Under the pieces are notes generated by a model. It had not been told where the DNA came from and searched no databases. It was given only the letters and a program-made list of their open reading frames with translations. Source: an uncultured Acidobacteriota bacterium (GTDB lineage: Bacteria; Acidobacteriota; Vicinamibacteria; Vicinamibacterales; CAVVIG01). Taken from it: a stretch of DNA of 64,000 bases. The stretch spans positions 269,093-333,092 of the forward strand of contig CAVREM010000048.1 in assembly GCA_963720005.1 (NCBI GenBank), given 5' to 3'. A program made the position numbers and the translations under genes. Positions 9,134 through 61,750 of the stretch are shown in pieces; positions within the stretch are counted from its first letter, which is position 1; each line of letters opens with the position of its first letter.

Positions 9134-9169
9134 CACGCCTGTGCCTTCGTGTTTTCGATCGGCGCATGC

Positions 9170-15549: not shown

Positions 15550-15556
15550 AAGAACC

Positions 15557-15668: not shown

Positions 15669-15692
15669 TACGCGTGGTAGCATGTGTTCGCG

Positions 15693-16711: not shown

Positions 16712-17121
16712 CTACTCCGGTTTTCTGGCGCGCACGTCGTCCAGCCGCAGCCGCGCCGCTTCGACGGCCTTGAGGCCGTCCTTCTGCATCTCGATCGGCG
16801 ACGGTCCTTCGGCCGGGTCCGTGAAGGCGCTGCCGGCGATCGTTCGATGATAGTCGCGTTCCGCTTCCTGAAGCGCGGCGAGCGCGTCATGTGCTCGCGC
16901 TGCCACTCGAGCCACCGGGTCAGCCGCGCGATGGCTTCGGCTTCCGTCGAGGCCGCGCACTCGATCCCGAAGCGGCTCCCGTCGTCCACACGTTCTGCCC
17001 ACGCAATCCAGTCAGCGCCCCCGAGAGAGCGTGCGAATTCGATGGCTCGCTTCGCCTGTCGTTCGTCGTTCGTCGTTCGAACGTTCGTCGGTTGTGGGTT
17101 CGTCCATGCGTTTGCCCTCAA
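16712..17121 (-). CDS. hypothetical protein; frame break near 16890; start uncertain
   Basis: ORF 16669..17121 (AKRAIEFARSLGGADWIAWAERVDDGSRFGIECAASTEAEAIARLTRWLEWQRE) continues in ORF 16712..17002 (DALAALQEAERDYHR...RARKPE). The stop lies 3 nt before the dehydratase ATG. Confidence 0.35.
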
Positions 17122-17163
17122 TCATCGCTTCGTCGAACGCCGAACGCGCGAACGCCGAACGGC
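17057..17163. repeat. GTCGTTC/GAACG-word inverted repeat
   Basis: The left arm is TGTCGTTCGTCGTTCGTCGTTCGAACGTTCGTCGG. The right arm is CGTCGAACGCCGAACGCGCGAACGCCGAACGGCAG. Confidence 0.8.
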
Positions 17164-21300: not shown

Positions 21301-21870
21301 CTCGCAGGAGAAGATCGAAGCGCGAGCCGCGCGACGAGGACGTGCTGTCGTACCTGCTGTACCCGCAGGTCTTCCTCGACTACGACGAGCACTCGGCAGC
21401 AGTACGACAACACGTCGACGTGATCCCGACGCCGGCGTTCTTCTACGGGCTGCAGCGCCGGCGAGGAGATCGCCGTCGAGATCGAGCGCGGGCAAGACGC
21501 TGATCGTCCGGTACCTCACGACCGGCGAGGCGCGCGAGGACGGCACGCGGACGGTCTTCTTCGAGCTGAACGGCCAGCCGCGCGAGGTGAGCGTCGCCGA
21601 CCGATCGGTCGAGGGCGTCGCTACAAGCGCCATCCCAAGGCCGACCCCGACGAACCCGAACCACGTCGCCGCGCCGATGCCCGGCAAGGTGTCGACGTCG
21701 CGGTGCAAGAACGGCCAGGCCGTCAAGGCAGGCGAGCGGCTGCTGTCGATCGAGGCGATGAAGATGGAGACGGCCGTCTACAGCCCGCGCGACGCGGCGG
21801 TCGACCGAGGTGCTGGTCGCGCCCGGGCGCCGTCGTCGAAGCGCGCGACCTGCTGGTCGTCCTGAAATAA
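18357..21870 (+). CDS. pyc: pyruvate carboxylase; very many frame breaks
   Basis: Biotin carboxylase motifs (MKKLLVANRSEIAIRCFRAA, KASFGGGGRGMRVV, FIEVNPRIQVEHTVTE), carboxyltransferase motifs (HTHDTSG) and the biotinyl motif EAMKMET are all present. They are scattered over all three forward frames. Confidence 0.9.
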
Positions 21871-21879
21871 CCGTCAAGC

Positions 21880-21900
21880 GGCGGGCCTAAAAGGCCCGCC
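21880..21900 (+). terminator. terminator-like hairpin after pyc (no U-tract)
   Basis: GGCGGGCC-TAAAA-GGCCCGCC lies 10 nt after the pyc stop. Confidence 0.4.
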
Positions 21901-21971
21901 CTACAGCCGGCTCGGCCGCCCTAAGCCGAGCCGAGTTCCGCAGCCAGAAAAGACCAATATTTCCAAGCGAC

Positions 21972-22000
21972 TTGACTAGACTGACGTGTCAGTCTAGACT
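21972..22000 (+). promoter_or_regulatory. sigma70-like promoter with embedded 22-bp perfect palindrome (putative TetR operator)
   Basis: The promoter reads TTGACT-N17-TAGACT. The spacer holds the palindrome CTAGACTGACGTGTCAGTCTAG (21976..21997). The candidate GTG start of the TetR gene is at 22008. Confidence 0.6.
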
Positions 22001-25039: not shown

Positions 25040-25113
25040 GTAGCGTCCGCCTTTAGGTGGACGTCAAAACGTCCGGCGTACGTCCACCACGTCCGGCTAA
25101 AGCCGGACGCTAC
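25040..25113. repeat. REP-like hairpin cluster, same family as 992 and 4044
   Basis: GTAGCGTCCGCCTTTAGGTGGAC (variant, inverted) at 25040..25062 and GTCCGGCTAAAGCCGGACGCTAC at 25091..25113. Confidence 0.85.
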
Positions 25114-31945: not shown

Positions 31946-32220
31946 CCGCGGAGGATACGGAGGACACGGTTTCAACACGGAGCCACGAAGACGCGGAGGA
32001 CGCTCGGAGAAGACACCAGGCGCGAATCGCCCGCGCAGCGGGCACTGAGACGAGAGCGTCAAATACAAGCCTGGATTGCATGGCGTGCATAAAAACGGCT
32101 CTGTCGTCAGCACGGCCGGCTACGCCGGCCGTTCGTCGCCCAATGTCTTCTCCGTGGGTAAGCTCCTTTCTCCGTGGCTCCGTGGTGAAGCCGCGTGCTC
32201 CGCAACCTCCCTCCGTGGCC
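31946..32220. repeat. inverted repeat of ACGGAGG/CCTCCGT words around a roughly 130-nt structured loop
   Basis: The left arm (31946..32014) is CGCGGAGGATACGGAGGACACGG..CACGGAGCCACGAAGACGCGGAGGACGCTCGGAGAAGAC. The right arm (32145..32220) is GTCTTCTCCGTGGG..CTCCGTGGCTCCGTGG..CCTCCCTCCGTGG. Confidence 0.8.
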
Positions 32221-32659: not shown

Positions 32660-32663
32660 CATG

Positions 32664-32737
32664 CAGTCGTCAGTCATCAGTCTCAGTCATCAGTGATCAG
32701 TCATCGAAGGACTGACGACTGTTGACTGTCGACTGTC
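32664..32737. repeat. inverted repeat of CAGTCAT/GACTG words
   Basis: Six tandem CAGTCNT heptamers are followed by GACTGACGACTGTTGACTGTCGACTGTC. It sits between the sixA start and the DUF1684 stop. Confidence 0.85.
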
Positions 32738-33614
32738 ATGGTTTCGGCAACTGACCCGCGTAATCGCGCTCGCCGGCGAGGATTCGCACGCTCAGCCGGT
32801 TCTCGGCGGGCGGAATCGGGCACGTCGTGTACGGGTTGAATGAGCAGGGCGGATTGTAGGCCTGGTTGAAGTCGAGCACCGTCGTGCCGTCGGCATTCAG
32901 GTCTGCGTACAGGAAGCGCGCGGCCTCATACGTTTCCTTGCCGCTCGTGCCGTCGCGGAAAATGAAATACAGCCGGCCGGGCCGAGTCGTCATCGGGCGC
33001 ATCTTGATCGCCTGTCCGAGCAGCGTGAACTCCACCACCCCTTCGGTGCGATAGACGTCGTAATCACCAACGAGCGTCGGGATCTTCAGCTCGCGCGGGG
33101 ATGCGTCTTTCACGAATCGCCCGACGACGCGGTATTGCTCGTCGATCGGAAACCACCGGTAGCCGGCGAACGCCTTCGCGATGTCGCTCTGTGGATCGTG
33201 GATGCGGATCGCCCGCCGGTCGCCGCTCGTGTGCACCCAGAACGACACCTCGCCGATGCGCAGCTGATCAGCGCCGCCGTTGTCACCATCGGACCTGAGG
33301 TCGATCGCCTTGTCGACAGGTTTCCCATTGAGCGTCACGCCCGCGCCGGCCGCGGGCTCGAAGGTAACCCGCCCTCCGCGATAGACGAATCGGCCTGCCG
33401 AGGCCGGGAAGCGCCGCGGAAGAACCACCTGGTTCGAAGGGCTGCTGCCGGCGCTATTGACGCCGTCCTTGAGAAACGACAGCCCCGCGAGCGGCACGTA
33501 GTCGCGCGTGTAGTCAGCCTCATGCTTCGCGCGCCACGCCTCCACCTGCTTCACCCACTCGGGATCTGCCGCCGCCAGGACAACCAACCCAAGCGCCGCG
33601 ATTTTGGACAGCAT
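32736..33614 (-). CDS. DUF1684 domain-containing protein
   Basis: Intact 292-aa ORF. The C-terminal signature is AYNPPCSFNPYTTCPIPPAENRL. Confidence 0.85.
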   Translation of the reverse strand: MLSKIAALGLVVLAAADPEWVKQVEAWRAKHEADYTRDYVPLAGLSFLKDGVNSAGSSPSNQVVLPRRFPASAGRFVYRGGRVTFEPAAGAGVTLNGKPVDKAIDLRSDGDNGGADQLRIGEVSFWVHTSGDRRAIRIHDPQSDIAKAFAGYRWFPIDEQYRVVGRFVKDASPRELKIPTLVGDYDVYRTEGVVEFTLLGQAIKMRPMTTRPGRLYFIFRDGTSGKETYEAARFLYADLNADGTTVLDFNQAYNPPCSFNPYTTCPIPPAENRLSVRILAGERDYAGQLPKP

Positions 33615-33618
33615 GTGA

Positions 33619-33699
33619 TCCTCTGCGCCTCTGCGCCTCTGCGTCCTCTGCTCCCTCAGCGTCCTCGTCTATTTCTCTCTGCGTCCTCGTCTACTTCTG
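33619..33699. repeat. CTCTGCG-word tandem array (single orientation)
   Basis: CCTCTGCGCCTCTGCGCCTCTGCGTCCTCTGCTCCCTCAGCGTCCTCG..CTCTCTGCGTCCTCG. Confidence 0.8.
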
Positions 33700-36485: not shown

Positions 36486-36490
36486 CGTTG

Positions 36491-36576
36491 CAATTCAGAA
36501 TTTGGAATTAGGGATTTGGAATTCGTGGCCAGAACCCATCAGCATTCCAAATTCCAAATTCCAAATTCATAATTAC
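36491..36576. repeat. inverted repeat of GGAATTT/ATTCCAA heptamers
   Basis: The left arm is CAATTCAGAATTTGGAATTAGGGATTTGGAATTCG. The loop is 16 nt. The right arm is GCATTCCAAATTCCAAATTCCAAATTCATAATTAC. Confidence 0.9.
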
Positions 36577-36592
36577 AGGCCTTCTACCACCA

Positions 36593-37648
36593 ATGACTCA
36601 CAACATTGCAGTCATCGCCGGTGATGGCATCGGCAAGGAAGTGATCCCTGCCGGGATTGCCGCGCTCGAGCGCGCCACGCGGGGTTCGGGTGTTTCCCTG
36701 CAGTTCACCGACCTGCCCTGGGGATGCGATTACTACCTCCGGCACGGGCGGATGATGGATGCCGACGGCTTCGAGCGCCTGTCGAAGTTCGACGCCATCT
36801 ACCTCGGCGCGATCGGCGATCCGAAAGTTCCGGATCACATCGCCGTGTGGGATCTGCTCCTGCCGCTGCGGCAGCGGTTCCAGCAGTACGTCAACCTTCG
36901 TCCGATGCGGCTGCTTCCCGGCCTGAGCTCGCCGCTCGCGAACCGCGGGGCGGCGGATATCGACATGGTCTGCGTCCGCGAGAACTCCGAGGGCGAGTAC
37001 TCGGGCCTCGGCGGGCGGATTCATGTCGGGACGCCGTTCGAAGCCGCCGAGCAGACCGGCCTGTTCACGCGCACCGGCATCGAGCGCATCCTCCGCTACG
37101 GGTTCGAGGTGGCCTCAAAGCGGCCGCGCAAGCTCCTGGCGAGCGCGACGAAGTCCAACGCGCTGCGCCACTCGATGGTGTTCTGGGACGAAGTCGCGGA
37201 AGTGGTCCGGAAGGACTACCCGGCGGTCGAGTACCGGAAATACCACGTCGACGCGATCGCCGCGCGGATGGTGACGCACCCCGCGTCGCTCGACGTCATC
37301 GTGTGCTCGAATCTGTTCGGGGACATCCTCACGGACATCGGCTCGGCCATCTCGGGCAGCCTGGGCATCGCGCCGGGCGCGAACATCAACCCGGAACGGA
37401 CATCACCATCGATGTTCGAGCCGATCCACGGCTCGGCGCCGGATATCGCCGGAAAAGGGATTGCCAACCCGATCGGCTGCATCTGGGCCGGCGCGATGAT
37501 GCTCGAGCATCTCGGCCATCCCGACTTGCACAACAAGGTCCTCGCCGCTATCGAGCGCGTCGTCGCGTCAGGGAAAAACCGGACGCCGGATCTCGGGGGA
37601 CATGCGAAAACGAAGGCCCTCGCGGACGCGATCGCAGCCGAGATCTAG
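36593..37648 (+). CDS. tartrate dehydrogenase/decarboxylase (isocitrate/isopropylmalate dehydrogenase family)
   Basis: Intact 351-aa ORF with IAVIAGDGIGKEV, VRENSEGEYSG and NLFGDILTD motifs. Confidence 0.85.
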   Translation: MTHNIAVIAGDGIGKEVIPAGIAALERATRGSGVSLQFTDLPWGCDYYLRHGRMMDADGFERLSKFDAIYLGAIGDPKVPDHIAVWDLLLPLRQRFQQYVNLRPMRLLPGLSSPLANRGAADIDMVCVRENSEGEYSGLGGRIHVGTPFEAAEQTGLFTRTGIERILRYGFEVASKRPRKLLASATKSNALRHSMVFWDEVAEVVRKDYPAVEYRKYHVDAIAARMVTHPASLDVIVCSNLFGDILTDIGSAISGSLGIAPGANINPERTSPSMFEPIHGSAPDIAGKGIANPIGCIWAGAMMLEHLGHPDLHNKVLAAIERVVASGKNRTPDLGGHAKTKALADAIAAEI

Positions 37649-37653
37649 ACAAG

Positions 37654-37765
37654 CCACGAAACCACGAAAACAATCAAGCCACGAAAGCACGAAAACACGA
37701 AAAGCAAAATTGGGTTTCGTGCTTTCGCGTTTTCGTGGCGTTTCTTCTGTTCCGTGTTTTCGTGG
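37654..37765. repeat. inverted repeat of CACGAAA(A) words between convergent genes
   Basis: The left arm is CCACGAAACCACGAAAACAATCAAGCCACGAAAGCACGAAAACACGAAAAG. The right arm is TTTCGTGCTTTCGCGTTTTCGTGGCG..TTCCGTGTTTTCGTGG. Confidence 0.9.
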
Positions 37766-38892: not shown

Positions 38893-38927
38893 AATCTTAA
38901 ATCTGAAATCTTAAATCTTAAATATCA
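38893..38927. repeat. tandem AATCTTA heptamer array
   Basis: AATCTTA AATCTGA AATCTTA AATCTTA AATATCA lies upstream of the ATG at 38942. Confidence 0.85.
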
Positions 38928-38941: not shown

Positions 38942-39943
38942 ATGCGGGCGCGCCTGGTGACCGCCGTGATCCTTGCAGCCGCCTCAGCCTCGCTGACGGC
39001 CCAGACCGTCGGCTCCGCTCGGGCCGGGGCGCCCTCCCGCCAACCCGACCTCAAGACCGTCCTCGCCCGAGCCGCCGCCTACGTCGAGGAGTTCCGCGAG
39101 AGGTTGTCTGGAATCGTCGCCGAAGAGACCTACCGCCAGCAGGAGATCCCCGGCGAGCGCCGGGAACTGCGATCGGATCTCCTGCTGGTCCGATCGGAAA
39201 CGTTCCCGCGGTGGCTGCATTTTCGCGACACATTCGAGGTCGACGGGCAGCCAGTCCGGGACCGCGAGGAACGGCTGACGCACCTGTTTTTCGAGCCTGC
39301 GACGGCGCTGGAGCGGGCGAAGCGGATCGCCACCGAAAGCAGCCGATACAACATCGGCCCGGTCGAGCGGACGATCAACGTGCCGCTCATGCCGCTGGTG
39401 TTTCTCGAGCGAAACGTGCAGCCGCGATTCCGTTTCTCCCGCAGGGCCGACAACGAGCGACCTGCCGTCCCCGAGCACCACGCCGCACATTTCCGTGTAT
39501 CCACAGAAGTGTGGGTGGTCCACTTCGAGGAGCGCGAGCGTCCGACGATCGTTCGCGATTCGAAGAATCTCCGCGATGTGCCGAGCCGAGGGCCGATTCT
39601 GGATCGAACCTACCAGCGGACGCGTACTGATGAGCGAGACGCGGGCGAATCATCCGTCGCTCCGTGCCGACATTGCAGTCAACTATCAATCGGAGCCTCT
39701 CCTCGGCCTCCTCGTACCGGTCGCGATGTACGAGCGATACGAGAATACGCTGCCGGCGCAGCGTCTCCACCGAGCCAACGCTGGCGTCGCATCGAGGCCA
39801 TCGCAACATACGGTAAGTTCCGCCAGTTTCAGGTCCACGTCGAGCAGGATGTCGATCTTCCACGATCTCCAATCGACCAACCTTTGACGGGCCCACCCGC
39901 GGCCGTCGAACGTCCGAACGACGAACGCCCGAACGACAGATAG
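38942..39943 (+). CDS. secreted hypothetical protein; frame breaks between 39590 and 39790
   Basis: Has a signal peptide. ORF 38942.. is interrupted by a segment that reads better in ORF 39495.. (RGRFWIEPTSGRVLMSETRANHPSLRADIAVNYQSEPLLGLLVPVAMYERYEN), then the frame returns. Confidence 0.4.
   Translation: MRARLVTAVILAAASASLTAQTVGSARAGAPSRQPDLKTVLARAAAYVEEFRERLSGIVAEETYRQQEIPGERRELRSDLLLVRSETFPRWLHFRDTFEVDGQPVRDREERLTHLFFEPATALERAKRIATESSRYNIGPVERTINVPLMPLVFLERNVQPRFRFSRRADNERPAVPEHHAAHFRVSTEVWVVHFEERERPTIVRDSKNLRDVPSRGPILDRTYQRTRTDERDAGESSVAPCRHCSQLSIGASPRPPRTGRDVRAIREYAAGAASPPSQRWRRIEAIATYGKFRQFQVHVEQDVDLPRSPIDQPLTGPPAAVERPNDERPNDR
39905..39939. repeat. GAACGAC-word array (single orientation) at the 3' end of ORF 38942..39943
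   Basis: GTCGAACGTCCGAACGACGAACGCCCGAACGACAG. Translated it reads VERPNDERPNDR-stop. Confidence 0.75.
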
Positions 39944-39950: not shown

Positions 39951-40773
39951 ATGCCTGCCCGACCGACGTGGAGGGGATACCTGAAAATCAGCCTGGTCAA
40001 CATCCCGATCAAGGTGTTCCCGGCGACCGACGCCGCAGCCACCCTCAGCTTCAACCAGCTTCACGCCGAGTGCCAGACGCGCATTCAACAGAAACGCTGG
40101 TGCCCGCACTGCGAGCGCGAAGTCCCGAACACGGACCTGGTCAAGGGGTACGAGTTCGAGAAAGGCCGCTACGTCATCGTCGAGGAAGAGGACATCGAGA
40201 AGGTCCGTGTCGAGTCGACCCGGGTCATCAACCTCGAGAAGTTCACCGACGACACGGCGATCGACCCGATCTATCTCGAGCGGCCGTACTACCTGGCGCC
40301 GGACGGACCGGTCGCGAAGGAGGCGTTCGCCGTGATCCGCGAGGGGATGAAGGGCAAGGCCGGCATCGGCAAGGTGGCGCTGTACGGGCGGGAGTATCTG
40401 ATCAAGGTCCAGCCGCGCGAACAGGGGCTGATCATGTACACGCTGCGGCACGCCAACGAGATCCGCAGCATGGACGCGATCGACGAGCTTGCCGACATGC
40501 CGGCGGCGGTCAAGCCCGACGAAGTGCGGCTTGCCGAACAGGTGATCGGGACGTTTGACGGCGAGCTCGACTTCGAGTCGTACCGCGACGAGTACCAGGT
40601 CGGCCTGCGCGAGATCATCGACGCCAAGATCGAGGGGCGCGAGATCGTCGCGCCGGAAGTGGAGGCGCCGCCCAAGGTCGTCAATCTCATGGACGCGCTG
40701 CGCAAGAGCCTGACGACCATCGAAGCCGACGAAGAAGAAGACGCCGGCCGCGCGATCCAGAAAGGCTGGATAG
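39951..40773 (+). CDS. ku: non-homologous end joining protein Ku; +1 frame break near 40712
   Basis: RPTWRGYLKISLVNIPIKVFPAT, KGYEFEKGRYV and LERPYYLAPDG motifs are present. After one extra base the tail reads PSKPTKKKTPAARSRKAG-stop, the Lys-rich tail typical of Ku. Confidence 0.9.
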
Positions 40774-41499
40774 CTAGAATCCCATGTTCCGGATATCGTT
40801 CTTCAATCCGGGGTTGACGCGGAACCCGGCTTGTTCGGCCGCTCTCACGGCTGCCTCCGCCTCCGTCTTCCGGCCGGTCATCATGTACACGACCGCCAGG
40901 TTGTTGTACGCCTCACCGAGCTTGCGGTTCGCCTCGACGGCGGCCTTCCACTCAATCTCGGCGTCGGCCAGCTTCTCTTGACGGAAGTAGGCAGAGCCGA
41001 GCGCAAGCATGACCTCGCCAGGCACTACCGCCTGCTCGTGGCGATCGCGACCGTCCATGGCTTCGAGCGTACGGAGCCGATCCTCCAATTGGACGGCGTA
41101 TGGGCCGGTCGCCCCTCTCGCGAGGTGGAGCCGGGCGAGCGATGTCTTGATTTCGCCGATCTCGTCGCGTCTCGCGCGATCGCGCTGGTCGCGCTCCTTC
41201 TGGGAGCGGGTGGCGAGACTTTGAAAGGCTTCACGAGAGCCCTGGTAGGCAGCGACAGCCGCGACGAACCGCTTCTGCGCCATCCGGCACTGCCCGAGGT
41301 TGTAATGCGCCAGAGCCATCAGCGGATCGATCTCGATTGCGGCTCGGAACTGCGACGCGCCCTCTTCCCACCGTTCGGCCCGCATCAGCAGGACGCCCTC
41401 TTTGTAGTGGCGTTCCGCCAGCCTCACGTCGACCGCTGGCGGTTGAGCCGCCGTAGAGCTCATGATCACGAACGCAACGACCGAAGCTGCTCCCGTCAT
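40774..41499 (-). CDS. tetratricopeptide repeat protein, secreted
   Basis: Intact 241-aa ORF with a signal peptide and several TPR-like A/Y/N-rich helical repeats (ALAHYNLGQC, AYNNLAVVYM). Confidence 0.75.
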   Translation of the reverse strand: MTGAASVVAFVIMSSTAAQPPAVDVRLAERHYKEGVLLMRAERWEEGASQFRAAIEIDPLMALAHYNLGQCRMAQKRFVAAVAAYQGSREAFQSLATRSQKERDQRDRARRDEIGEIKTSLARLHLARGATGPYAVQLEDRLRTLEAMDGRDRHEQAVVPGEVMLALGSAYFRQEKLADAEIEWKAAVEANRKLGEAYNNLAVVYMMTGRKTEAEAAVRAAEQAGFRVNPGLKNDIRNMGF

Positions 41500-41525
41500 C
41501 TTGACCTCCCGGCCGCCTGGGGGCG

Positions 41526-43613
41526 CTACTGGCGGTCGATTGTCAAAAGTTCAACATCCTCCAGGGTGCGCTTCGTCACTTCGTCGCGCAGGACCATGCG
41601 CAGTTCGTGGGCGCCCACCGCGTCGGCAGGCACGGTGATCGCGATCGTCACGGTACCGGGCCGCAACTGGCCGGGGGGACCGGCTAGCACTTCGGCGCCG
41701 TCCGCCACTCGGCGCAGGCTGTAAGCCAGCGTCACTCGCGGCCCCCCTGCGGCACTGTCAATCCCCGCCCCGATGACGTCGAATGCGCAGAACAGCCGCG
41801 CGCCCGCCCTGAACGTCCGCCGCGCGATCGGCACCGGCCGACCGGGCTGACCCGGCGCCGCGGATTGTAGCGTATCGGTCACGACAGGCGTCGTGATCCG
41901 CAGCCCGTCGGGCCATGGCACGTCGAACTCATGGCGGACGCTTCCGACCATGCCATTGGCGCGATCCCGTAGCAGAATCGTCGCGAAATAGCGGCCCGGC
42001 GCCAATGAGAACTCCCGCCTGATCGGCAGGCCCGTCCTCCGTGCCTGTTCGAATGCTTCCGCGGGCATGTCGAGCTCGACGAGCCGTTCGTCGCGCTGCA
42101 GCTCGCCCGTCTCGCGATGGCCGACGAGTACATACGACTCCAGGACACCGGTGTAGCGGCCGTCACGTGGCCGCAACTGAAGCGGAGCAGGATCGGCCTC
42201 CGCAACGAGCAGCGTCTGCACCTTGCCGTCGGAACCGGCACCGAATGCGTAGCTCGCAAGTCGGAGCGGAATGCCTGACACACCGAGCGGTGAATCGAGA
42301 CCGGCTCGCACTGCCGGAGCCAGCTTGTCGCCGGACGCCCGGCGTTGCGTCTCGGAAGCGGCGTAGTAACCTCCGCGGGCGCGCACGTCCACGCCGGAAC
42401 GGTTCACGCCAACCTCGATTTTGCGAAACGCGCCGTCGCGGCGTGTATTCGTCGAGCTGTAGCCCAGGAGATAGTACGAACGGCCCTGGTCGGCAAGACG
42501 GGTCAGACCGGAGACGAGGTTCGTCCCGGTAATCGTGCTGCCGCCGGTGTCGGTGGCGATCGCCCGTGTTCCGTCCGCATCGCGGGATGCCAGCGCCAGT
42601 GACGTCGTCGCATCGCGGTCCTCGACCGCTCTTGCGGTGTCGGCGCCGCCGCCCGCCAGACCGGGCTGGCCGGGTAGTCCTTCCGGGCTTCGGACATCGA
42701 CGAAATGCACTGCCACGTTTGCGTTCCGTGCGGTTTGCACGAGCGTGCGGAAGCCGGGAAGGGTTGTGTCCGGAATGAAGCCTTCGGAGAAGAAGAACAG
42801 GCTTTTGCGGCCGCGCGCCGAGGCGAGCGCGGCGGAGATCCGGTCGAGCGCACCGAGCGAGGCCTGGATGCGCGTCTGTGCCTCTCGATAGGTCTGACGC
42901 GCCTTCGCCTGGATGAGGGCAATGCCGGGAGACACGTCGAGCTCACGGCGCAGCGTCGGATCGCCAGGGGCCGCGCCCGCCTCCGGAATGATGTCGTTCT
43001 CGAAGAACCGCCTCGCCACCTGAGCCAGCGCCTGGGGGTCGGTCTTGAGCGTAATCGCCATCGCCTCGTGGTCCCAGATGCGGTCGGGCGTGTTCTCCAT
43101 CCGTCGCGCGCCCTGCAGCTGCCGAACGCGCTCGAGCAATGCGTCGCGGTCCTGCGGCAGCTCCCCGGTCCAGCCGAACCCGCTCGACGACAGCGCGATC
43201 ATGACGCGGTCTCCTGGACGGAGCACGTGCTCGATGAACTGCGCAATCGTGTCACGCGCCCGCGGCGTCGCGAACTGCGTGACGTTCATGTCATCGAAGA
43301 CGATGAAGAACCACCGGCCGGCCGCATCAGGCCGTTGCTCGTTGGTCGATACGCGCATCCGCCCCTGCAGTGTCGGTGGCGACGGCGGCAGGGCGATCGC
43401 GTCGAATGCGGTCACCTGCTGACGCACGCCATCCTCCCGGACCGTGAAGTCTTCCGGCCTAAGGCCCTGGACAGGATTGCCGCTACGATCGAACACGACC
43501 GCGTCAACCGTGACGAGGTCGACGCGCGAAGGAAAGGTCGGCTGCTGCGCTCCTGATCCCGTTGCGGCCGCGAGGACGAGGATGATGGCGGTAAGCAGAG
43601 AGCGTATGCGCAT
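41526..43613 (-). CDS. VWA domain-containing protein (TIGR03436 acidobacterial VWFA-related type)
   Basis: Intact ORF. The start was chosen at MRIRSLLTAIILVLAAATGSGAQQPTF, just after a terminator. It has the N-terminal VDLVTVDAVV..G.PV.GL..EDF.V.EDG motif and a VWA core. Confidence 0.8.
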   Translation of the reverse strand: MRIRSLLTAIILVLAAATGSGAQQPTFPSRVDLVTVDAVVFDRSGNPVQGLRPEDFTVREDGVRQQVTAFDAIALPPSPPTLQGRMRVSTNEQRPDAAGRWFFIVFDDMNVTQFATPRARDTIAQFIEHVLRPGDRVMIALSSSGFGWTGELPQDRDALLERVRQLQGARRMENTPDRIWDHEAMAITLKTDPQALAQVARRFFENDIIPEAGAAPGDPTLRRELDVSPGIALIQAKARQTYREAQTRIQASLGALDRISAALASARGRKSLFFFSEGFIPDTTLPGFRTLVQTARNANVAVHFVDVRSPEGLPGQPGLAGGGADTARAVEDRDATTSLALASRDADGTRAIATDTGGSTITGTNLVSGLTRLADQGRSYYLLGYSSTNTRRDGAFRKIEVGVNRSGVDVRARGGYYAASETQRRASGDKLAPAVRAGLDSPLGVSGIPLRLASYAFGAGSDGKVQTLLVAEADPAPLQLRPRDGRYTGVLESYVLVGHRETGELQRDERLVELDMPAEAFEQARRTGLPIRREFSLAPGRYFATILLRDRANGMVGSVRHEFDVPWPDGLRITTPVVTDTLQSAAPGQPGRPVPIARRTFRAGARLFCAFDVIGAGIDSAAGGPRVTLAYSLRRVADGAEVLAGPPGQLRPGTVTIAITVPADAVGAHELRMVLRDEVTKRTLEDVELLTIDRQ

Positions 43614-43621
43614 AAAGGAAA

Positions 43622-43645
43622 AGGGGGCGGATTGCTCCGCCCCCT
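43622..43645 (-). terminator. rho-independent terminator between the receptor gene and the VWA gene
   Basis: On the minus strand: GGGGGCGG-AGCAAT-CCGCCCCC followed by TTTTCCTTT, then the VWA ATG. Confidence 0.6.
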
Positions 43646-43679
43646 TCACTATCCGCCTCCCTCTGGAGCCGGTCAAGAG

Positions 43680-46600
43680 CTACCAGTCGAACCGCGCACC
43701 GAACCGGATCGAAAGCGGGGCCTGAAACGAGCTCGTGGACGAGCCGCCGCCTAGCGTCGGCTGTCCGAAGTTCGGGTTCACCGCACCGAACGTGATTTCG
43801 GACCAATTGTCGTAGTTCAGCGCCGCCCGGCGGTTGAACAGGTTGAAGACATCCGCCAGCACGGTCACGCGCTGCGCGCGCCGAGCTCGAAGCGGTAATC
43901 GGCGTGCAGGTCGACGCCCAACTCTACAGGAGTCCGCTCCTTGAAGCCATCGACGGTCTCGATGCCCTCGCCGCGCACCGTCAAGGGAATTTCGCCCGGC
44001 GTTCGCGTACGCCGGATTTCCGGCCAGCGCGGTCAGAGAGGTGCCCGAGATGGCGTTGAAGCCGAAGCCGAGGTTGAAGTGTCCAAGATGTAGTTGCCGT
44101 ACAGCTTCAACTGGTGCGGCCGATCGTTCGGCAGCACGCCGGTGCCGAGCGAGTCGCCCTGGTAGCGGATATCGCCGCGAGCCGCCGTGAAGTCCCGATC
44201 TGAGTGTAGGTCGGGTCGTTGGTCGGGAAGTCGAAGAGCGAGGTGATCGCCGGATCGGACTGGCCGTTGTCCGACCGGAAGAATCCCTCGAAGTTGCCTT
44301 CGAGCTGGCTGAACCGGTACGACGCGATCGCCGCACCAGTTGCCCGCCAACCGCCTGTTCAACGTGAGCTCGAACGCGTTGTACATATGCGTGGGGTCCT
44401 CGAACGAGCTCGGCAGGACACCGCCGCACGACACGGTCGGAACATCCGCGTTGACGTTCAGAATCGCGTATTCGACCGATGCAGCGCCGCACGCACCGCT
44501 GGCGAACGGCTCGAAGTAGCCGACCAGCGGCAGATCGGAGATGTCCTCCAGGATCTGCGGCATGTTCCTCCGGATGAACCGGAAGGCGAGGTTCGTCGAA
44601 TTCAGCACGTCGAACTCCACGCCGGCGAGGATCTCGTTCTTGTAGGTGGAGCCGGAATCAGGATCGATTGGCGCCGCGTGGAGTCCGGCCTGTTGAAAAT
44701 GCGTAAGCCCGCCGGCGAACAACGTGCCGTTGGCCACCGGTTGCGTCAGCGCTGCGTCTCTGTAGTCCTGCCGCGTGATGCCCGCGTCGGCCGACATCGA
44801 GCGCGCCGCGAGATCGTTGGGAATCTTCGCGTAGAAGCGGCCATACGATGCAAACAGTTTCGCCCGGCCGTCGCCCCTCAGATCGAAGGCCACGCCGAGC
44901 CGTGGGGCCAGGTTGTTCCACGCGAACGAACACCGGATCGCCGGTCCGGTGCCGTCACCCTGGCCGGGCCGCGTGTCGCCCTCGAAGCAGAGATCCGGAT
45001 TGTCGCCGACGGGATCGACACCGCTCAAGTTCTGACGCTCATACCGAATACCAGGCCGTATCGTCAGCCTGCCCGCCTGCCAGGTGTCTTGCAGGAAGAA
45101 GCTGAAGGCCTCCTGGTTGGTCACGTCGGTTGGAACGAGCTTGCCGCGAGTCGAACGGTGGAACGGTTCTCGCTGCATCGGTGCCGAGGCGAATCTGAAT
45201 CGGCCCGCCGGTCACCGTCGACCCACCGGTCGAGAGGAGAAGGTTCGGACCGCTATAGTCGAAGTCACGCGTGAACTCGATGTTTTCCAGCCCGACACCA
45301 TACCTGACTTGGTGATCGCCGGCGCCGCTCAGAATGTGCGTGGACTTGACGCCGTACTGGAAGTTGCTCCCTTTGTCACGCTCGTAGCTGCCGAGCCCGC
45401 CGCTGCGCCCGTTCGGCGTGAACCGCAGGTCCTGGTAGAACCAATCGTCGACGGTCGCAATCTCGTTGAACTTGTTGGACGAGCTCGCCAGGTTCGCTTC
45501 GACGAGCCAGCTCGCTCCGACAATGCCGTCGTATCGAAGCGTCTGATTGTGTCCACCGTACTCCAGCTCGCTGGAGCCACCGTCGATTGACGTCGTTCCC
45601 GGGGCGTCGGCGTACGCGATGCGGCGAAGCTCCGAATAGCGCTGCAGGCCGCTCTCACCCTTTGATGGATCGCCAAACAGCGAGACATCGAAGCGGTGAT
45701 TTCCGCTCACATTTGCGCTCAGCTTGCCGGCATACGACTGGATCGTCCGTTTGCGGTCGACAACCCCGAGACTGGCGTACCGGGAAGCCAGGCGGCGCGG
45801 TGAAGCCGCGCTGCTGCCACTGCGGGTTGTAGGTGCCGAAGAAGAAGAGTCGATTCTCCACAATCGGACCGCCGACGGAGATGCCGATGTCGGAATCATC
45901 GACGCTGGCGGTGTTGACAGTTGCCATTCGGAGTGGTCAGCTCCTTCCACGACGCTTCGAGCGCCGACGGTCTTGTATAGCCGAACAGGCCGCCGGAGAA
46001 CTGGTTGCCGCCGCTCTTCGTGATGACGTTGACGACGCCGCCGGTGGTCTGGCCGAATTCCGCCTCGAAGCCGCCGGTCTTGATTTCGGTTTCCTTGATG
46101 AAGTCGCTCGTCACTCCAGCGCCCAGCGAGCCGAAGATCGAGTTATACGCACCAAAGCCGCCGAAGCCTGTGTCGGTGATGTTGACGCCATCGATCACAT
46201 AAATGTTCTCGAGGCCGCTGGCGCCATTGATGGACGGATTCGCGTTGCCGCCGGCCAGGTTGATGCCGGCGCTCATCGTGACGCCCGGGACCCGTCCAGT
46301 GTGGACGCGAGCGAGCGACCGACTGGAAGGTGCTGGAGCGTCTCGCTGTCGAGGACGTTCCCCGCGGTGGTATTGGTGATGTCGATCGCGGTGGCCCCGG
46401 CCGTCACCTGAACCGTCTCCGCAATCCCACCGGTCTCCAGCGCGAGGTTCAACTCACGACGTGTGCCGAGCTGGACGCTTAGGTCCCTTTGCTCGGCGGC
46501 TTTGAAGCCTGAGAGCTCCGCGCGGACTGAATACGATCCGGGCACCAGCAGCGGCGCATAGAAGCGACCGTCGTTGTCAGTCACCATTGTGCGGGCACCT

Positions 46601-46755
46601 TGAGCGCCGGTGATCGTGATCGTCGCGCCCGGCACTGGCAGGCCCTGCGGATCGACGACGCGGCCGCTGATCGACCCGGTCGTCTCCTGCGCAGCGGCAG
46701 CGCCCGTCAGCGCCAGCGCGAATACGAGAAGAAGAGTCCCCATGCGTGCGAACAT
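43680..46755 (-). CDS. TonB-dependent receptor-like outer-membrane protein with carboxypeptidase regulatory-like N-terminus; many frame breaks
   Basis: Signal peptide MFARMGTLLLVFALALTGAAAAQ, then ISGRVVDPQGLPVPGATITI. Plug motifs are VIDGVNITD and GVVNVITKSGGNQF. The C-terminus is SIRFGARFDW. The pieces are spread over at least six ORFs. Confidence 0.8.
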
Positions 46756-46964
46756 CAGTTCTCTCTCCTTTGAAGAGTGGCCCGTTGCACGGACATAGCG
46801 CCCGGCCCAATGTTGACCGGTTGTTCTATAACGAATCCCACCGCTTTCGCAATCTTTTAATGATCGCGCAATACTAAAGTTCCGCGGCAAGCACCTCACG
46901 TGCCCTTTTGCACAATTTCAGTCAAATCTGAGTCTGAATTCAAACATTTGGATGACTTGCCGAC

Positions 46965-47265
46965 TTCCGCGCAGGCGATCGACGAGCATGCCGGCATGCC
47001 GGCGGCGGTGAAGCCCGATGAAGGCCGGCTTGCCGAACAGGTGATCGGAACGTTTGCCGGGGAGCTCGACTTCGAGTCGGTCCGCAACGACTACCAGGTC
47101 GGCCTGGGGGAGATCATCGACGCCAAGTTCGAGGGGCGCGAAATCACTGCGCCGGAGGTTGAGGCACCACCCAAGGTCGTTAATCTCATGGACGCGCTGC
47201 GGCAAAGCCTGGACAGAGCATCAGCACCACGGCGTTGCGATCCAACAGGTTGGATCAAAGACTCT
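46965..47265 (+). pseudogene. diverged partial copy of the 3' end of ku (C-terminal roughly 85 codons plus downstream nt)
   Basis: ORF 46900..47337 contains MPAAVKPDEGRLAEQVIGTFAGELDFESVRNDYQVGLGEIIDAKFEGREITAPEVEAPPKVVNLMDALRQSL, collinear with Ku residues encoded at 40475..40775. A hand count over the core gives about 87% nt identity. Confidence 0.7.
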
Positions 47266-47562
47266 AATCTTTTGGATAATCAGGGCTTCTGGATTTCAGG
47301 TATTTTCGAACAAACGGTCAAAAACCTTGAAAAGTGAGGATACATTCCCCAACAAATTGCCTATGATTCGCTGGCATTACGCGTGCTCTAGCGATGCTGA
47401 ACAACTGTTCAACAAGAAGAAAGGAAACCGCAAACAATGAGACGAAAAAGCCTTGCTCGTCGCGCTGCTGGCCGTCATCCTCGGCAGCCGTCCGCGCCAT
47501 TCCAGAGGATGAGATTGATCTTCGGGAAGCATCCACCAGGTCGTGCGTTTGAGGAGAAACCT

Positions 47563-50367
47563 ATGATGAAGGCTTTCGGCGGCATCGGTCTCGTGCTCAC
47601 TCTCATGTTCGTCCCGGCATTGACCGCGGCCCAGACGGCCCAGGTCGGTGGGGTTTCCGGCGAAGTCACCGACGCGACCGGCGCGCGCCTGCCAGGCGCG
47701 ACGGTGACGCTGGTAAGCGTCGAACGGGGCGTGGCACGATCAACAGTCACCGACGGCGAAGGCGCATACCGCTTCTCGCTCGTCGCTCTCGGCACTTACA
47801 ACGTGAGCGTGGAGCTCTCCGGCTTCACAACGGTCCAGATTACAAACAATCTCGTCGAAGCGGAAAAAACCACCCACGTGATGGTGTCGCTGCAGGTGGC
47901 AAGTCTCACTGAAGCGACCACGGTCGTCGGCAGACTCCGATCGTCGATGCGGGCAATCAGACGCAGCAGGCCCGGCTCCGTGTCGAAGAGTTCGAAAAGA
48001 TGCCCTGGGCACGCAGCTACCTGAATCTGATCGCGGCGGCTCCCGGTGTTGTCGGCACGGCCAACGTCAACTCCCACGGCGCGCTCACCAACAGCAACCG
48101 TTCATGTTCGACGGCGTGAACACGACCGACCCGACAACCGGCACGTTCGGCAGCAACCTGAACTTCGAATCAGTCAGCCGAGGTGGTTGTTCGCACGCCG
48201 CCGTGTCGGCGGGAATCGGGCGATCGTCAGGGAGCGTCATCGACGTCATCACGAAGTCGGGCACGAACCGGTTTGCGGGATCGTTCAAGTACCTGGCAGA
48301 AAACGACAACTGGAACGCGCAGAACAACGATGTGAAAAGCGAAGTCGCGCCGTTCCCGTCGCTCGCCCGCACCAAATACGACAAGGTGAACTCGATTTAC
48401 TCGGGAACGTTGGGTGGTCCAATCATAACAGAGACCGCGCCTGGTTCTTCGTGAGCGTATGAAGACTCGGCGGAGGACGACTCCCGGAAGTCCAGCTGAA
48501 CGCGCGGCCGGGCATCACGCCCGAAACCTTCCAACAGGTGCCGAAGATCCCTCGTTCAATGCCCGTGGAACGGTCCAGCTGGGCCCCGCGCAGAACCTTG
48601 TGGGTGAAAGTCGTGCGAACGCCAACGAGCGGGATTCGTTCGAAACGACTACTGGGGGGGCGTCAATTTTTCCGGCAGAGCGCGAATCACTCACTGCCCA
48701 GGAACAGGGGGGGACGAGCGTCGCGGGACGGTCCATCGGCTGTGCTCAACCCCCGCTGGACGGCCGAGGCGATGGATGGCTTATGCGACGGGAGTTCATC
48801 GACGGTGCGTCCCCTACGAGCGAACCAACGTGGACAACGGGGCACCGTATCTCGACTTGAACGACAACCGTGTCTACAACGGCGCGACGTTCGACGGTTA
48901 TGTCAAGCGGCCACGCCTGCAGGCAACCGGCGCGCTCAACAACTACACCACGATCGGCGGCCGCACGCACAACTTCAAGCTCGGGCTGGACTGGCAGAGT
49001 GTGACGTCTGAGAACTCGTTCAAGTATCCCAACAGCCAGCTGTTCTACGGCCTCGGATTCGACCCGGTCGCCAGAAGTTTTGCGACTAACCAGTTCTCGA
49101 GAGGACTACGATGATGCGCCGTCGCAGTCGAACGGCGATCTGATCGCCATCTACGCGCGCGACAAGTTCGAGATCGGCACGCGTGTGAGCGCCGAGGCGG
49201 GCCTCCGTTACGAGCGGCAGGGCGGCACGAGCGATGTCGGCGTCGACACGGTGGCCACGAATACGATCGCCCCAAGACTTTCGGCGAGTTACGCGCTCAG
49301 CGACGACGGCAAAAGTCTGCTGGTCGCTTCCTACGGCCGTTATTATGATGCCGTGTTGCAGACGTTTTCAGATTCATTCGCGAGCGTCCCGCAGCAGGAG
49401 AACTACAGCACCTACATCTGGAACGGTTCGGCATACGTGTTCGACAGCACCACCGTATCGGCCGACAATCCGTTCAGGCCGAATACCGACGTCCGGCCCC
49501 GCAGCCTCGACGAGTTCACCGTCGGCTTCGACCAACAGGTCGGCCGTACAATCGGTGCCGGTGTTCGGTATATTCACCGGACCTGGGGCAACTTCATCGA
49601 CGACATCATCACGTTCAACCCCGACGGCACGCGCAATCGCCGCGCTGAGAACATCGATTCGGCCGAGCGCACCTACCGGGGGATCGAGTTCTCGGTGGAC
49701 AAGCGCTTCTCGAGTGCCTGGTCGGCGATGGGCAATTACACCTACTCGAGAACCCGCGGCAACCACTTCGACACCGGCGACAACTTCACGACGCTCGAGG
49801 ACTACTCGAAGTCGACCTGCCGTCAGACCGTGGATCCTGGCCTGTTTGGCGGCGGCACGTTCCCATGCAGCGAGATCTTTCCGAACCTGTACGGCAAGCC
49901 GATTTTCGATCGTCCGCACCTGATCAAGCTCAATGCGGCGTACAGTCCGCCCGGTGGGTCCGGTTAATCTCACAGCCGGCTTCGTCGGCACGGCGACGTC
50001 GAAGACGACGTATCAGAAGCAGCGCACGGTCAGCGTGGTCAGTCCGGTGACGGGCGGCAATTTCGCGAACTACACGTACTTCTACGAGCCGCGGGGGAGC
50101 CAGCGCGTGCCGGGACTGCTGGACGTCTACGACTTGTCGCTGGAAGGGACCTGGCGCGCGGGACCGAGGAGGGACCTCGGAATGAAGTTCGAGATCTTCA
50201 ACATTTTCAACAACGAAGAGAAGCTCAACGTGAGCAACCTGAATTGGTGCAACTCGACGTCAACGGCCGCCTGCGCGACGGCGGTCGCCAACTTCGGCAC
50301 GGCGACCGCTCGCGGGGCGTTCCAGGGACATCGGACGTTCCGACTGACGGCGCTGTTTCGGTTCTAA
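47563..50367 (+). CDS. TonB-dependent receptor-like outer-membrane protein with carboxypeptidase regulatory-like N-terminus; many frame breaks
   Basis: GAGGAG RBS, then MMKAFGGIGLVLTLMFVPALTAAQ and VSGEVTDATGARLPGATVTLV. Plug motifs are FMFDGVNTTDPTTG and VIDVITKSGTNRFAG. The C-terminus is FRLTALFRF. Confidence 0.8.
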
Positions 50368-50389
50368 AACAGGGCTGGTGGGGCGGGTG

Positions 50390-50415
50390 GGGCAGACAGG
50401 CAAGTAGGTCTGCCC
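50390..50415 (+). terminator. terminator-like hairpin after the receptor gene
   Basis: GGGCAGAC-N10-GTCTGCCC lies 23 nt after the stop at 50367. Confidence 0.4.
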
Positions 50416-50459
50416 AATCTGCCCGTTCCATGTCCGATCCGCGCGCCCTCAGATCGCCG

Positions 50460-50863
50460 CTAACGACCTTGGACGCTGTCGAGGATGGCGGCCAGATCGA
50501 TGCGCTTCAGGATCGGCTCGCTGCCGGCCTCTTTGTAAATCTCGTTCGCGATCTGCTGGGAGAGAAGCTGCGGCAGGTCCGTCACGTGCGGATGCCGGAA
50601 CCGATCGACCTGGATCGTCGGGGCCGTTACCCCGAGATAGATTGAGAGCCGCAGCGGCACAGGGAGGTCGAACGCGAGCAGTTGAAGCCGACGAGGTGCC
50701 CCTGCTCCACGTGATGCCAGACGGTCGAGAGCAGCGTCGCCCCGTCCATGGTGGCGAGCGTCGCCGTGGTCGACTTAGGTTCCCGCTCTCGCCACCAGCC
50801 CACCGCCACGACACGGCACAGATCCGGATCCAGTGAACACCGCTCGAGTGGGCGGGAGGGCAT
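50460..50863 (-). pseudogene. truncated, frame-shifted ORF weakly resembling PolB-exo-like 3'-5' exonuclease (PF10108 type)
   Basis: ORFs 50627..50863 and 50460..50660 join as ..RVVAVGWW..GATLLSTVWHHVEQGHLVGFNCSR-FDLPVPLRLSIYLGV... This resembles the LV.FNG..FDlPvL core. The first acidic motif and the distal half are absent. Confidence 0.3.
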
Positions 50864-51042
50864 CAGGCCCTCCCGTTAGAGGCGCTCATCCCTCGATCAC
50901 GCTTTCACACTGAATGCGCCGCCTCGTGCGACTTCACCTGACACGTTGGCGCACGATGCGTCGATCCCCGCCTCGTTGCCAAGGATCCGTGCATGTCGAC
51001 TCATCACCGGGTCTATTTATCACCGGTGACAAGGAGGCATGC

Positions 51043-53997: not shown

Positions 53998-54000
53998 CAA

Positions 54001-54821: not shown

Positions 54822-54840
54822 AATTTCGGATGATATAGTA

Positions 54841-54922
54841 GAGGACGCAGAGGGAAGAGGCGCGCCGCTCTGCGCTCTGCGCTCTGCCCTCTGCGCTCTG
54901 CGTCCTCTGCTACCTCTGCGTC
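54841..54922. repeat. inverted repeat of GCAGAGG/CTCTGCG heptamers in the divergent promoter region abutting the polA start
   Basis: GAGGACGCAGAGGGAAGAGG is followed by CGCTCTGCGCTCTGCGCTCTGCCCTCTGCGCTCTGCGTCCTCTGCTACCTCTGCGTCC. The TTG start of polA is at 54924. Confidence 0.9.
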
Positions 54923-58607: not shown

Positions 58608-58691
58608 CGCGCCATCGTAGCACATCATCAGCTCGACTAACCTCCTGAAAACACAGGCACTTGCGCGCTCAGGCACGATGGTTTTGGTACA

Positions 58692-61748: not shown

Positions 61749-61750
61749 CT

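Follow-up and report, generated by a model that had tools for sequence, protein, structure and literature searches.

The tandem-word hairpin upstream of Iso_dh

The DNA analysed here, referred to as the window, is a stretch of 64,000 nucleotides (nt) from an uncultured soil Acidobacteriota bacterium of the order Vicinamibacterales (contig CAVREM010000048.1), the gene map of which was completed with Pfam. Within it, a Peptidase_S58 gene ends with its stop codon at 36485 and an Iso_dh gene, a member of the isocitrate/isopropylmalate-dehydrogenase family, starts at 36593. The 107-nt spacer between the two genes is filled by an inverted repeat at 36489-36577 that is assigned to neither strand, as are all the hairpins described below, and that belongs to a family with the words GGAATTT and ATTCCAA. 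Its arms of 34 nt (36489-36522 and 36544-36577) are 85% complementary and enclose a 21-nt loop, the letters reading TGCAATTCAGAATTTGGAATTAGGGATTTGGAAT, then the loop, then ATTCCAAATTCCAAATTCCAAATTCATAATTACA. As a single strand this focal hairpin folds with -33.1 kcal/mol, compared with -14.4 +/- 3.4 kcal/mol for dinucleotide shuffles (RNAfold, z -5.5).

The window was compared with approximately 100 kb of sequence from relatives. A distribution survey comprised 80 loci fetched around the dehydrogenase gene, and a metagenome scan with open reading frame (ORF) 38942 yielded four loci, including those of the close relatives L082 and L084. The closest relatives are Vicinamibacterales/Acidobacteriota metagenome-assembled genomes: L087 (from ERZ25039531, 93-97% nucleotide identity) is colinear with the window at 3-24 kb, L086 (from ERZ25039547, 79-91% nucleotide identity) at 4-25 kb, L082 and L084 (94% amino-acid identity in Iso_dh) at 34-41 kb, L088 (~91% amino-acid identity) at 57-63 kb, and L091 (~83% amino-acid identity) at 38-41 and 54-64 kb. 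The orthologous spacer of L082 and L084 is 11 nt long (TTCGAGAATCC) and does not contain the focal hairpin. The copy that L091 carries at the site corresponding to 61747 and the focal hairpin both contain GGAATTCGTG...AGCATTCCAAATTCC...AATTACAG, and because these ends and this loop-proximal sequence are common to the two, the focal locus is a recent paralogous copy of an older family and not the product of its own seed alone.

Periodicity, folding and position of the arrays

A first-pass annotation of the window listed 17 loci at which tandem words of seven nucleotides form arrays or inverted arms, and all 17, with their words, were recovered at their coordinates. Non-redundant arrays were counted with TRF in the window and in 20 dinucleotide shuffles, and each locus was folded against 100 dinucleotide shuffles. 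The predicted period-7 signature is borne out, with 16 period-7 arrays in the window and 2.45 in the shuffles; period-9 arrays number 21 and 2.4, respectively. Model-free autocorrelation of spacers of at most 400 nt peaks at lags 7 (0.313), 14 (0.302) and 21 (0.291), and that of coding sequence exhibits period 3 only. Period 7 is the mode among the arrays, 8 and 9 are also common, and arrays inside genes use 9. A copy is typically an imperfect palindrome of 60-390 bp, the arms of which consist of a tandem 7-9-nt word and its reverse complement. The long imperfect hairpins that had been expected at most loci are true hairpins at 12 of the 17, folding far better than shuffles (z -2.4 to -10.8) around loops of 6-250 nt, but the remaining five (39905, 33619, 56117, 38893 and, weakly, 6970) lack a second arm and are direct arrays only. 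Several pairing registers of the hairpins score nearly equally.

The excess of period 7 and the fold z-scores mean that the arrays are not a product of chance, and the elements are real rather than an assembly artefact because they are found in independent JGI Illumina and ENA assemblies. Arrays occupy 15 of the 39 spacers of at least 30 nt, in convergent, divergent and co-directional settings alike. The annotation had placed them exactly at gene boundaries, which holds in part: the arrays at 14097 and 13366 (both in DUF1800) and 56117 (polA) lie within genes, and that at 39905 lies in a gene tail. As an observation on the remainder of the window, the region from 40 to 54 kb has a lower G+C content (0.59-0.63), contains three TonB-dependent-receptor-like genes and has no word arrays, and in L091 the interval between Ku and the gene lying upstream of polA holds just one receptor gene; part of 40000-54000 may be a more recent insertion.

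Nine of the 12 hairpins abut at least one gene 3' end and their stems are very stable, as would suit RNA hairpins under selection as intrinsic terminators or as stabilisers of sense-strand mRNA. However, no T-run follows any hairpin on either strand, with at most 5 T in the following 12 nt, and the G+C-rich stem with a subsequent U-tract that characterizes an intrinsic terminator is lacking. A terminator scan of 31.8-40.1 kb returned nine sites compared with 5.3 +/- 2.2 in shuffles, which is no clear excess, and only one of the nine lies within a listed hairpin. Sense RNA has no stability advantage over antisense RNA (mean difference +2.1 kcal/mol, with antisense better in five of nine cases), one hairpin sits in a divergent spacer, and two sit inside ORFs, all of which makes a role of this kind extremely improbable. 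A sigma-70 promoter scan of the same 31.8-40.1 kb gave one site where 1.0 was expected from shuffles. That sole promoter-like match starts at 37646 and a terminator-like site occupies 37725-37738 on the plus strand inside the hairpin at 37647-37765, so that both touch the same element. Searches of the whole window against Rfam (gathering threshold) and for tRNA genes were both negative.

Homologous copies within word families

Arm order is constant in every hairpin, running from GTCGTTC to GAACGAC in five of five and from CGCAGAG to CTCTGCG in two of two. Members of the GTCGTTC family have the common termini CTGTCGTTCG...CGAACGACAG. Two of them, element E (14097-14190, z -2.7) and element F (15557-15668, z -3.6), also possess a non-periodic interior of approximately 63 nt that is 87% identical between them. 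Element E lies in frame within the DUF1800 C-terminus, and element F extends from the true DUF1501 stop codon (TAG, ~15546-15548) to the BMC start codon. These features and the match between the focal hairpin and L091 contradict the proposal that the loci are independent products of different seeds, and the alignments show that the members of a given word family are dispersed, homologous copies with a fixed arm order, common ends and a common interior. The words of different families had also been described as unrelated, which does not hold for all of them: the G+C-rich families have an ACG-purine core in common, and L086 has GAACGCA at a place where the window has GAACGAC.

Gains are evident where orthologous sites are empty. 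In addition to the focal hairpin, empty in L082 and L084, elements E and G are absent from L086, the hairpin at 59980 is absent from L091, and the array at 38893 is absent from L082. Element E is present and 100% identical in L085 and L087, and the L086 site holds only GACGAACGACAG. Element G (17057-17163, z -4.1), just 3' of the stop codon of a minus-strand DAO-family gene, is present in L087 with another loop, and the L086 site is a 4-nt spacer. The 59980-60063 hairpin of the GTCGTTC family (z -3.2) fills the spacer between the pcnB stop and an SDR start and has an ortholog in L088/L090; the L091 site is a 1-nt spacer. The array at 38893-38927 comprises 4.4 direct copies of AATCTTA on the plus strand of a divergent spacer, has no structure, and is missing from L081 and L083 as well as L082. 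Since new copies sit at sites that are empty in close relatives, the elements spread by copy and paste. A loss is seen at site A (5742-5755, neither strand), located between two convergent genes, where a CGTTCTG/GAACG hairpin of approximately 70 nt in L086 and L087 corresponds to a 14-nt remnant with a single word (CGACGTTCTGCTCG) in the window; the deletion lies between short direct repeats. Three empty or collapsed sites in all hold word-like seeds, AATTCGAGAAT in L082 and GACGAACGACAG in L086 among them, which agrees with the part of the earlier proposal that envisaged shared generation from seeds.

Gains of this kind might be the work of non-autonomous transposons resembling miniature inverted-repeat transposable elements (MITEs) or REPINs, the latter being inverted pairs of repetitive extragenic palindromic (REP) sequences, moved by transposases encoded elsewhere and with the tandem words serving as transposase-binding sites in terminal inverted repeats. 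The elements have defined, conserved ends, several of the form 5'-TG...CA-3', and a fixed arm order, copies are gained at sites without alignable homology, and their arm sequence is conserved beyond neutral expectation. Like MITEs, they are small, non-coding, multicopy structures with terminal inverted repeats. No target-site duplication was found at any of the four filled-versus-empty sites (36489, 14097, 17057 and 59980), in keeping with the annotation's view that this is not one MITE family. The absence of such duplications is compatible with enzymes of the HUH/Y1 type, such as those of IS200/IS605 and the REP-associated tyrosine transposases (RAYT). Against such transposons, no transposase or RAYT (Y1 transposase) gene is present in the 64-kb window and no transposase in the 20-kb loci of relatives; insertion sequences are likewise missing from the window and from the fetched loci. 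Moreover, a separate enzyme would be required for every one of the many unrelated families, and neither the word-like seeds at empty sites nor the solo arms and in-place array growth are expected of cut-or-copy transposition. Ordinary non-autonomous transposons are considered an unlikely explanation.

The hairpins are also distinct from REP sequences and REPINs. Instead of an imperfect palindrome of 20-40 nt with a GTAG/CGTC tag, the arms consist of tandem non-palindromic words and the ends read, for example, TGTCGTTCG and GTAATTAGG. Separate REP sequences with a GTAG tag (GTAGCGTCCGGCTTTAGCCGGACGT) do occur in the window, as REPIN-like inverted pairs and one tandem pair (987-1079, 4042-4094 and 25040-25113), and sequences related to them lie close to 502-561 and 21876-21900. 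REP-like palindromes (GCGGACCTAAAGGTCCGC and GCAGGCCTTTAGGCCTGC) are also found at ~1290-1400 of L082, in the 5' (signal-peptide) region of Peptidase_S58, and are absent from the ortholog in the window. A further palindrome, the near-perfect 29-nt TTGACTAGACTGACGTGTCAGTCTAGACT at 21972-22000, lies upstream of a TetR-family gene and is conserved in L086 and L087; it is probably a TetR operator overlapping the -35 box.

Persistence and change at orthologous sites

Three hairpins and the polA array persist in L091. The first hairpin, at 61747-61850 (z -6.8), is a GGAATTT/ATTCCAA-family member with the words AATTAGG and TTCCTAA, is located between two minus-strand genes, and has orthologs in L088 and L091 with conserved arms and unrelated loops. 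The second, at 63158-63249, is a near-perfect 41-bp member of the CTCTGCG family (-78.4 kcal/mol, z -10.8) with an arm identity of 0.83-0.84 in L091. The third, at 54836-54922 (z -4.8), belongs to the GAGGACGCAGAGG/CCTCTGCG family, lies in the divergent spacer upstream of polA, and has a longer right arm in L091. The CACGAAA/TTTCGTG hairpin (37647-37765, z -7.0), between the convergent Iso_dh and DUF3500 genes, persists in L082 and L084. Fourfold-site identity to the window is 0.49 for L091 and 0.505 for L082, where 0.39 is expected at random. The arms at 61747 and 63158 have an identity of 0.68-0.84 over all aligned columns, with higher values in the cores, and the loop has 0.26; an unrelated spacer has 0.37 and a presumably functional promoter spacer 0.81. 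Resident copies therefore persist at orthologous sites past the near-saturation of synonymous sites, with conserved arms (about 0.8-0.9) and unconserved loops, a pattern that fits the structural selection envisaged in the annotation. A separate observation concerns the divergent spacer at 58629-58691 upstream of pcnB (CGACTAACCTCCTGAAAACACAGGCACTTGCGCGCTCAGGCACGATGGTTTTGGTACA), which is ~94% conserved in L091 and L088 with synonymous sites near saturation and has no Rfam match; it may be a regulatory or leader element.

The comparison of strains that had been suggested for detecting copy-number variation reveals whole-word changes in place. The direct CGAACGN array at 39905-39939, of approximately 4.5 copies on the plus strand and without a hairpin, lies in the 3' tail of ORF 38942-39943 and precedes the Ku ribosome-binding site; the tail contains no words in L082 and L083, two in L081 and 4.5 in the window, and L091 has a related GAACCNT array. 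The CACGAAA(A) array at 6970-7116 (neither strand, z -1.3), which has about six copies and a weak second arm in a divergent spacer, comprises approximately three perfect copies of CACGAAAA in L086, approximately six in L087 and six in the window. The hairpin at 37647 has three words per arm in L082 and L084 and at least five in the window, where either arm has been extended by a block of ~25 nt. In the long GTCGTTC/GAACGAC element at 8859-9216 (arms ~8859-8915 and 9171-9216, interior ~250 nt, z -2.4), both arms have changed relative to L086, where TGCGTTC and GAACGCA (also GAACGA) stand in place of GTCGTTC and GAACGAC, and the two arm words are exact reverse complements in either genome. The orthologs of element F in L086 and L087 differ by indels, and even in comparison with L087, rearrangement is far greater in array regions than in the sequence flanking them. 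Copies thus change by gain or loss of words or blocks in both arms, by joint replacement of the word in the two arms, and by deletion. A spacer that touches on this subject is 21869-21970, where the window has a REP-like hairpin and a small CGGCTCGG/CCGAGCCG hairpin, L087 has (CGAGCCC) x10 at 18950-19030, and L086 has neither; this spacer has been wholly remodelled between very close genomes.

Arrays that grow and shrink by whole words raise the question of a purely neutral mutational by-product, made by slippage and fold-back template switching without selection or dispersal. An excess of heptamer simple sequence repeats (SSRs) is a known mutational pattern in many bacteria, and the seeds at empty sites, the variation in word counts, the site A deletion between short direct repeats and the strand symmetry of the stems would all follow from such a process. 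It does not account for arms that are conserved at orthologous sites while fourfold sites are near saturation, for the non-periodic interiors and ends common to family members, or for the constant arm order, and is highly unlikely.

The same conservation could be expected if the arrays were binding sites of an oligomerising host DNA- or RNA-binding protein, either a nucleoid-associated protein or global regulator, or a protein of cold-shock type with one heptamer bound by each monomer, and with the hairpin as a secondary feature. Arm sequence is conserved while the loops are free, and the direct-only arrays at 6970 and 38893 lie in divergent promoter spacers. Protein binding is also the published reading of the paired repeats of Geobacter metallireducens, one class word of which, TCTCCGTS[Y], recurs at 32150-32211, and PMC4679880 cites the binding of heptamer repeats by CspB. 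The many words would, however, require many proteins, the arrays are frequently gained, lost or resized between genomes that are 93-97% identical, copies occur in coding sequence and in every gene orientation, and there is no tie to particular gene functions. A primary role as protein-binding sites is accordingly regarded as quite unlikely.

Copies within genes and the state of reading frames

At least four copies lie in or overlap genes, as placed by Pfam and homolog alignments: the two in DUF1800 (14097-14190 and 13366-13406), that in polA (56117-56175) and that in the gene tail at 39905-39939. Element E is translated as ...FGVRSDRDRSTFDASTNARTKSAAPERRTTEV... in a variable loop of the DUF1800 C-terminus and adds 27 residues relative to L086. 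The array at 13366-13406, which was missing from the earlier list, comprises 4.6 copies of TCCTCAGCG at period 9 on the plus strand in a DUF1800 linker; in L086 and L087 the site holds a full period-9 hairpin, and the L087 ORF is intact (479 aa). In polA, the direct CCTCTGCG array (plus strand, units of 9, 8 and 7 nt) encodes a Ser/Ala/Pro loop ahead of the conserved ILDAFKSVLEDP, and the intact 908-aa polA of L091 contains an orthologous shorter array translated as SAPLRSASSAPSA. Arrays in genes have 9-nt units or a net length divisible by 3, which is the expected filter of selection on the reading frame. At 56025-56175, the vestigial 3'-5' exonuclease region of polA possesses an 18-nt perfect duplication in tandem (GGTGCCGACCCTGAAAGA x2), after which comes the CCTCTGCG array. 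A shorter translated version occurs in L091, and this loop of polA is therefore a repeat hot spot.

Reading frames are disrupted at many places in the window. The TonB-dependent receptor genes are split into four to five ORFs, and there are breaks in DUF1800, DUF1501, amine oxidase and polA; the genes broken into two to five ORFs in different frames are at 9230-10824, 12658-14312, 14316-15680, 44033-46899, 47437-50367 and 54924-57772. DUF1800 (479 aa) and DUF1501 (460 aa) are intact in L087, as is polA (908 aa) in L091, and because L087, at 93-97% identity, has intact orthologs, the breaks are probably long-read assembly indels, the window itself probably stemming from a long-read assembly prone to error. 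No inference was drawn from reading frames near arrays. A clustering of frameshifts at arrays was considered and is not interpretable, given the many disruptions elsewhere in the window. An out-of-frame insertion, with excision restoring the frame, was considered for the 59-nt polA array and rejected, as the intact polA of L091 reads the orthologous array in the same frame; the break in the polA frame, immediately 5' of the array, probably reflects an indel in the assembly.

Remaining elements and distribution among relatives

Three further loci complete the set. A CAGTCAT/GACTGNN hairpin (32662-32739, z -5.9) fills the stop-to-start spacer between two minus-strand genes, and a 275-nt foldback at 31946-32220 (z -10.2), with arms of ~70 nt and the words CACGGAG(N) and CTCCGTGG, lies between convergent genes; L001 has no spacer at the latter position. 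A direct CCTCTGCG-family array at 33619-33699 (plus strand, periods 8, 9 and 22) forms no hairpin (z -1.4).

Vicinamibacterales loci possess arrays of period 7 or 8 and inverted word pairs built from other words, including CCCGART, GTTCGGA x14, CAGGAGAT/ATCTCCTG, AGATCTAT x8, ATTGACG/TCAATCG, GAATTGGT and GGAAGGCA. Approximately 50 outgroup loci, from Bradyrhizobium, Brevibacillus and others, contain essentially no arrays or inverted word pairs. Among the loci of relatives, L006 15757-16150 contains adjacent arrays of GTTCSRG (~28) and SCCCGRN (~16) around a loop, with arms that are not complementary, and L007 12360-12600 contains two tandem copies of a 135-nt module made up of a CAGGAGAT hairpin and a GGGGTTC array. 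The word CCCCGAR is common to L005, L006, L007 and L087.

A proposed class of lineage-specific foldback repeats

The interpretation given most weight, with a probability of approximately 0.5, is that the focal locus represents a single copy of a class of small, dispersed foldback repeats that are specific to the Vicinamibacterales lineage and similar to REPINs and MITEs but with SSR arms. Their niche is that of REP sequences, REPINs and MITEs: spacers whatever the orientation of the flanking genes, the tails of genes, and protein loops that tolerate insertion. Replication slippage would make and homogenise the arrays, in line with a known bacterial bias toward 7-nt units, and the complementarity of the arms would be kept by selection on the stem, by arm-to-arm copying through intrastrand template switching, or by both. 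Such upkeep of the arms, together with homogenisation within arrays, would freeze a word for long periods. Because several pairing registers score nearly equally, mis-registered hairpins could also drive symmetric growth of the arms. For spread, either an enzyme acting in trans and encoded outside the window or copying primed by homology at word-like seeds would be needed. Any function would probably be that of a strand-symmetric structural element of DNA or RNA, as for REP sequences, and not that of a canonical intrinsic terminator.

Several points weigh against this class of foldback repeats as the explanation. No mobilising gene in the window, target-site duplication or target motif was found, which leaves the spreading step unexplained, and if spread were driven by enzymes, several cognate ones would be required for the seven or more families. 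Conservation of arm sequence beyond pairing could instead reflect a sequence-specific protein that reads the words. Covariation among the hairpins, orthologous and paralogous, was assessed on only 3-4 sequences with ambiguous registers and was uninformative, and the sequence analysed covers 64 kb of the genome and ~100 kb from relatives, too little to give copy numbers or recent identical copies. Given the many disrupted frames in the window, errors of assembly may account for part of the degeneracy of the words, for instance the length of the A run in CACGAAA(A).

Comparison with known repeats

The annotation knew of no earlier description of such a system, and this does not hold: paired sites in G. 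metallireducens, an excess of heptamer SSRs, the short tandemly repeated repetitive (STRR) sequences of cyanobacteria, and the inverted arrays of Xanthomonas and Nostoc have all been published. Aklujkar et al. 2009 (PMC2700814) describe several classes of 3-5 tandem 7-9-nt repeats in G. metallireducens, with the class words GTTGCTYN, TCTCCGTS[Y] and MTYCTGA, that are paired on opposite strands at a variable distance, are mostly intergenic and absent from the sister species, and are read as IHF/HU sites. The 12 hairpins correspond to this type in having tandem 7-9-nt repeats, opposite-strand pairs and several classes, the comparison being one of descriptions, and the word TCTCCGTG(G) also occurs at window 32150-32211. 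The G. metallireducens sites differ in that they belong to another phylum and come with supplementary alignments only, no evolutionary analysis and no reported translated copies. The word TCTCCGTGG at 32150-32211 was observed to equal the consensus TCTCCGTS[Y] of the class 2 paired sites of G. metallireducens.

Published heptamer SSRs include cyanobacterial STRR, GGGAATC of Xanthomonas, GGGGAYT of Nostoc and TAACTGA of Beggiatoaceae (PMC4692102, PMC4679880, PMC2408588), and heptamer SSRs are also the subject of Mrazek 2007, as represented in papers that cite it. Some of the Xanthomonas and Nostoc arrays are inverted pairs able to form stem-loops, and a Nostoc spacer contains arrays of TTGTCAG and of CTGAC type. 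The arrays of the window share the traits of heptanucleotide SSRs and STRR, namely an excess of tandem units of ~7 nt, an intergenic bias, several families per genome and a copy number that varies between close relatives. In STRR and heptamer SSRs, however, arrays are mostly direct and one G-rich or A/T-rich word is usually dominant, whereas inverted hairpins rule here (12 of 17), the ends and interiors of each family are defined, and the hairpin is copied in its entirety. A CAGTCAA variant in the hairpin at 32662-32739 is a rotation of CAACAGT, an STRR word of cyanobacteria. The matches to Geobacter and STRR words may be a coincidence, with a chance of roughly 3% for the seven families of the window, or a shared constraint.

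Likeness to other dispersed repeats is partial. Like REP sequences, bacterial interspersed mosaic elements and REPINs, the hairpins are high-copy extragenic palindromes of two inverted units, without target-site duplication, that persist for long periods in spacers, including operon interiors; unlike REP units, which are single palindromes of 20-40 nt with a GTAG/CGTC tag, they consist of untagged, non-palindromic tandem words. Eukaryotic Foldback elements have long terminal inverted repeats of short tandem subrepeats, the number of which sets arm length. Like MITEs and Foldback elements, the present repeats are non-coding and multicopy, span 60-400 bp, have inverted arms and vary in presence between relatives, but no target-site duplication or related autonomous element was seen, and they grow from seeds and have solo arms. 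Rickettsia palindromic elements are palindromic repeats tolerated in frame in protein-coding genes, as are the insertions in DUF1800 and polA, but they are unrelated in sequence and lack tandem-word arms, and the copies described here are mostly intergenic. A literature search found no published account of such repeats in Acidobacteria. The repeats are therefore of a kind that is already known but neglected, and are well resolved here; they do not form a categorically new system.

The repeats matter because the non-coding DNA of Vicinamibacteria, which rank with the most abundant bacteria of soil, is still largely undescribed. They occupy a large share of spacers, reach into polA and DUF1800, and vary among genomes that are 93-97% identical; they will break or confuse assemblies and gene calls, and their loci are usable as strain-typing markers. 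The loci of the relatives form a tractable data set on the origin, transposase-free-looking spread and persistence of REP-like hairpins. More speculatively, and doubtful at present, tandem-heptad foldbacks could be a distinct transposase-independent prokaryotic repeat that slips in register, corrects itself through the opposite arm and seeds at word-like microhomology, with an architecture, and perhaps words, common to Vicinamibacteria, Geobacter and cyanobacteria; alternatively, the heptads could be read by a protein with 7-nt periodicity. Three scattered observations, the excess of heptamer SSRs, the STRR of cyanobacteria and the paired sites of Geobacter, are linked by these repeats and may represent one architecture.

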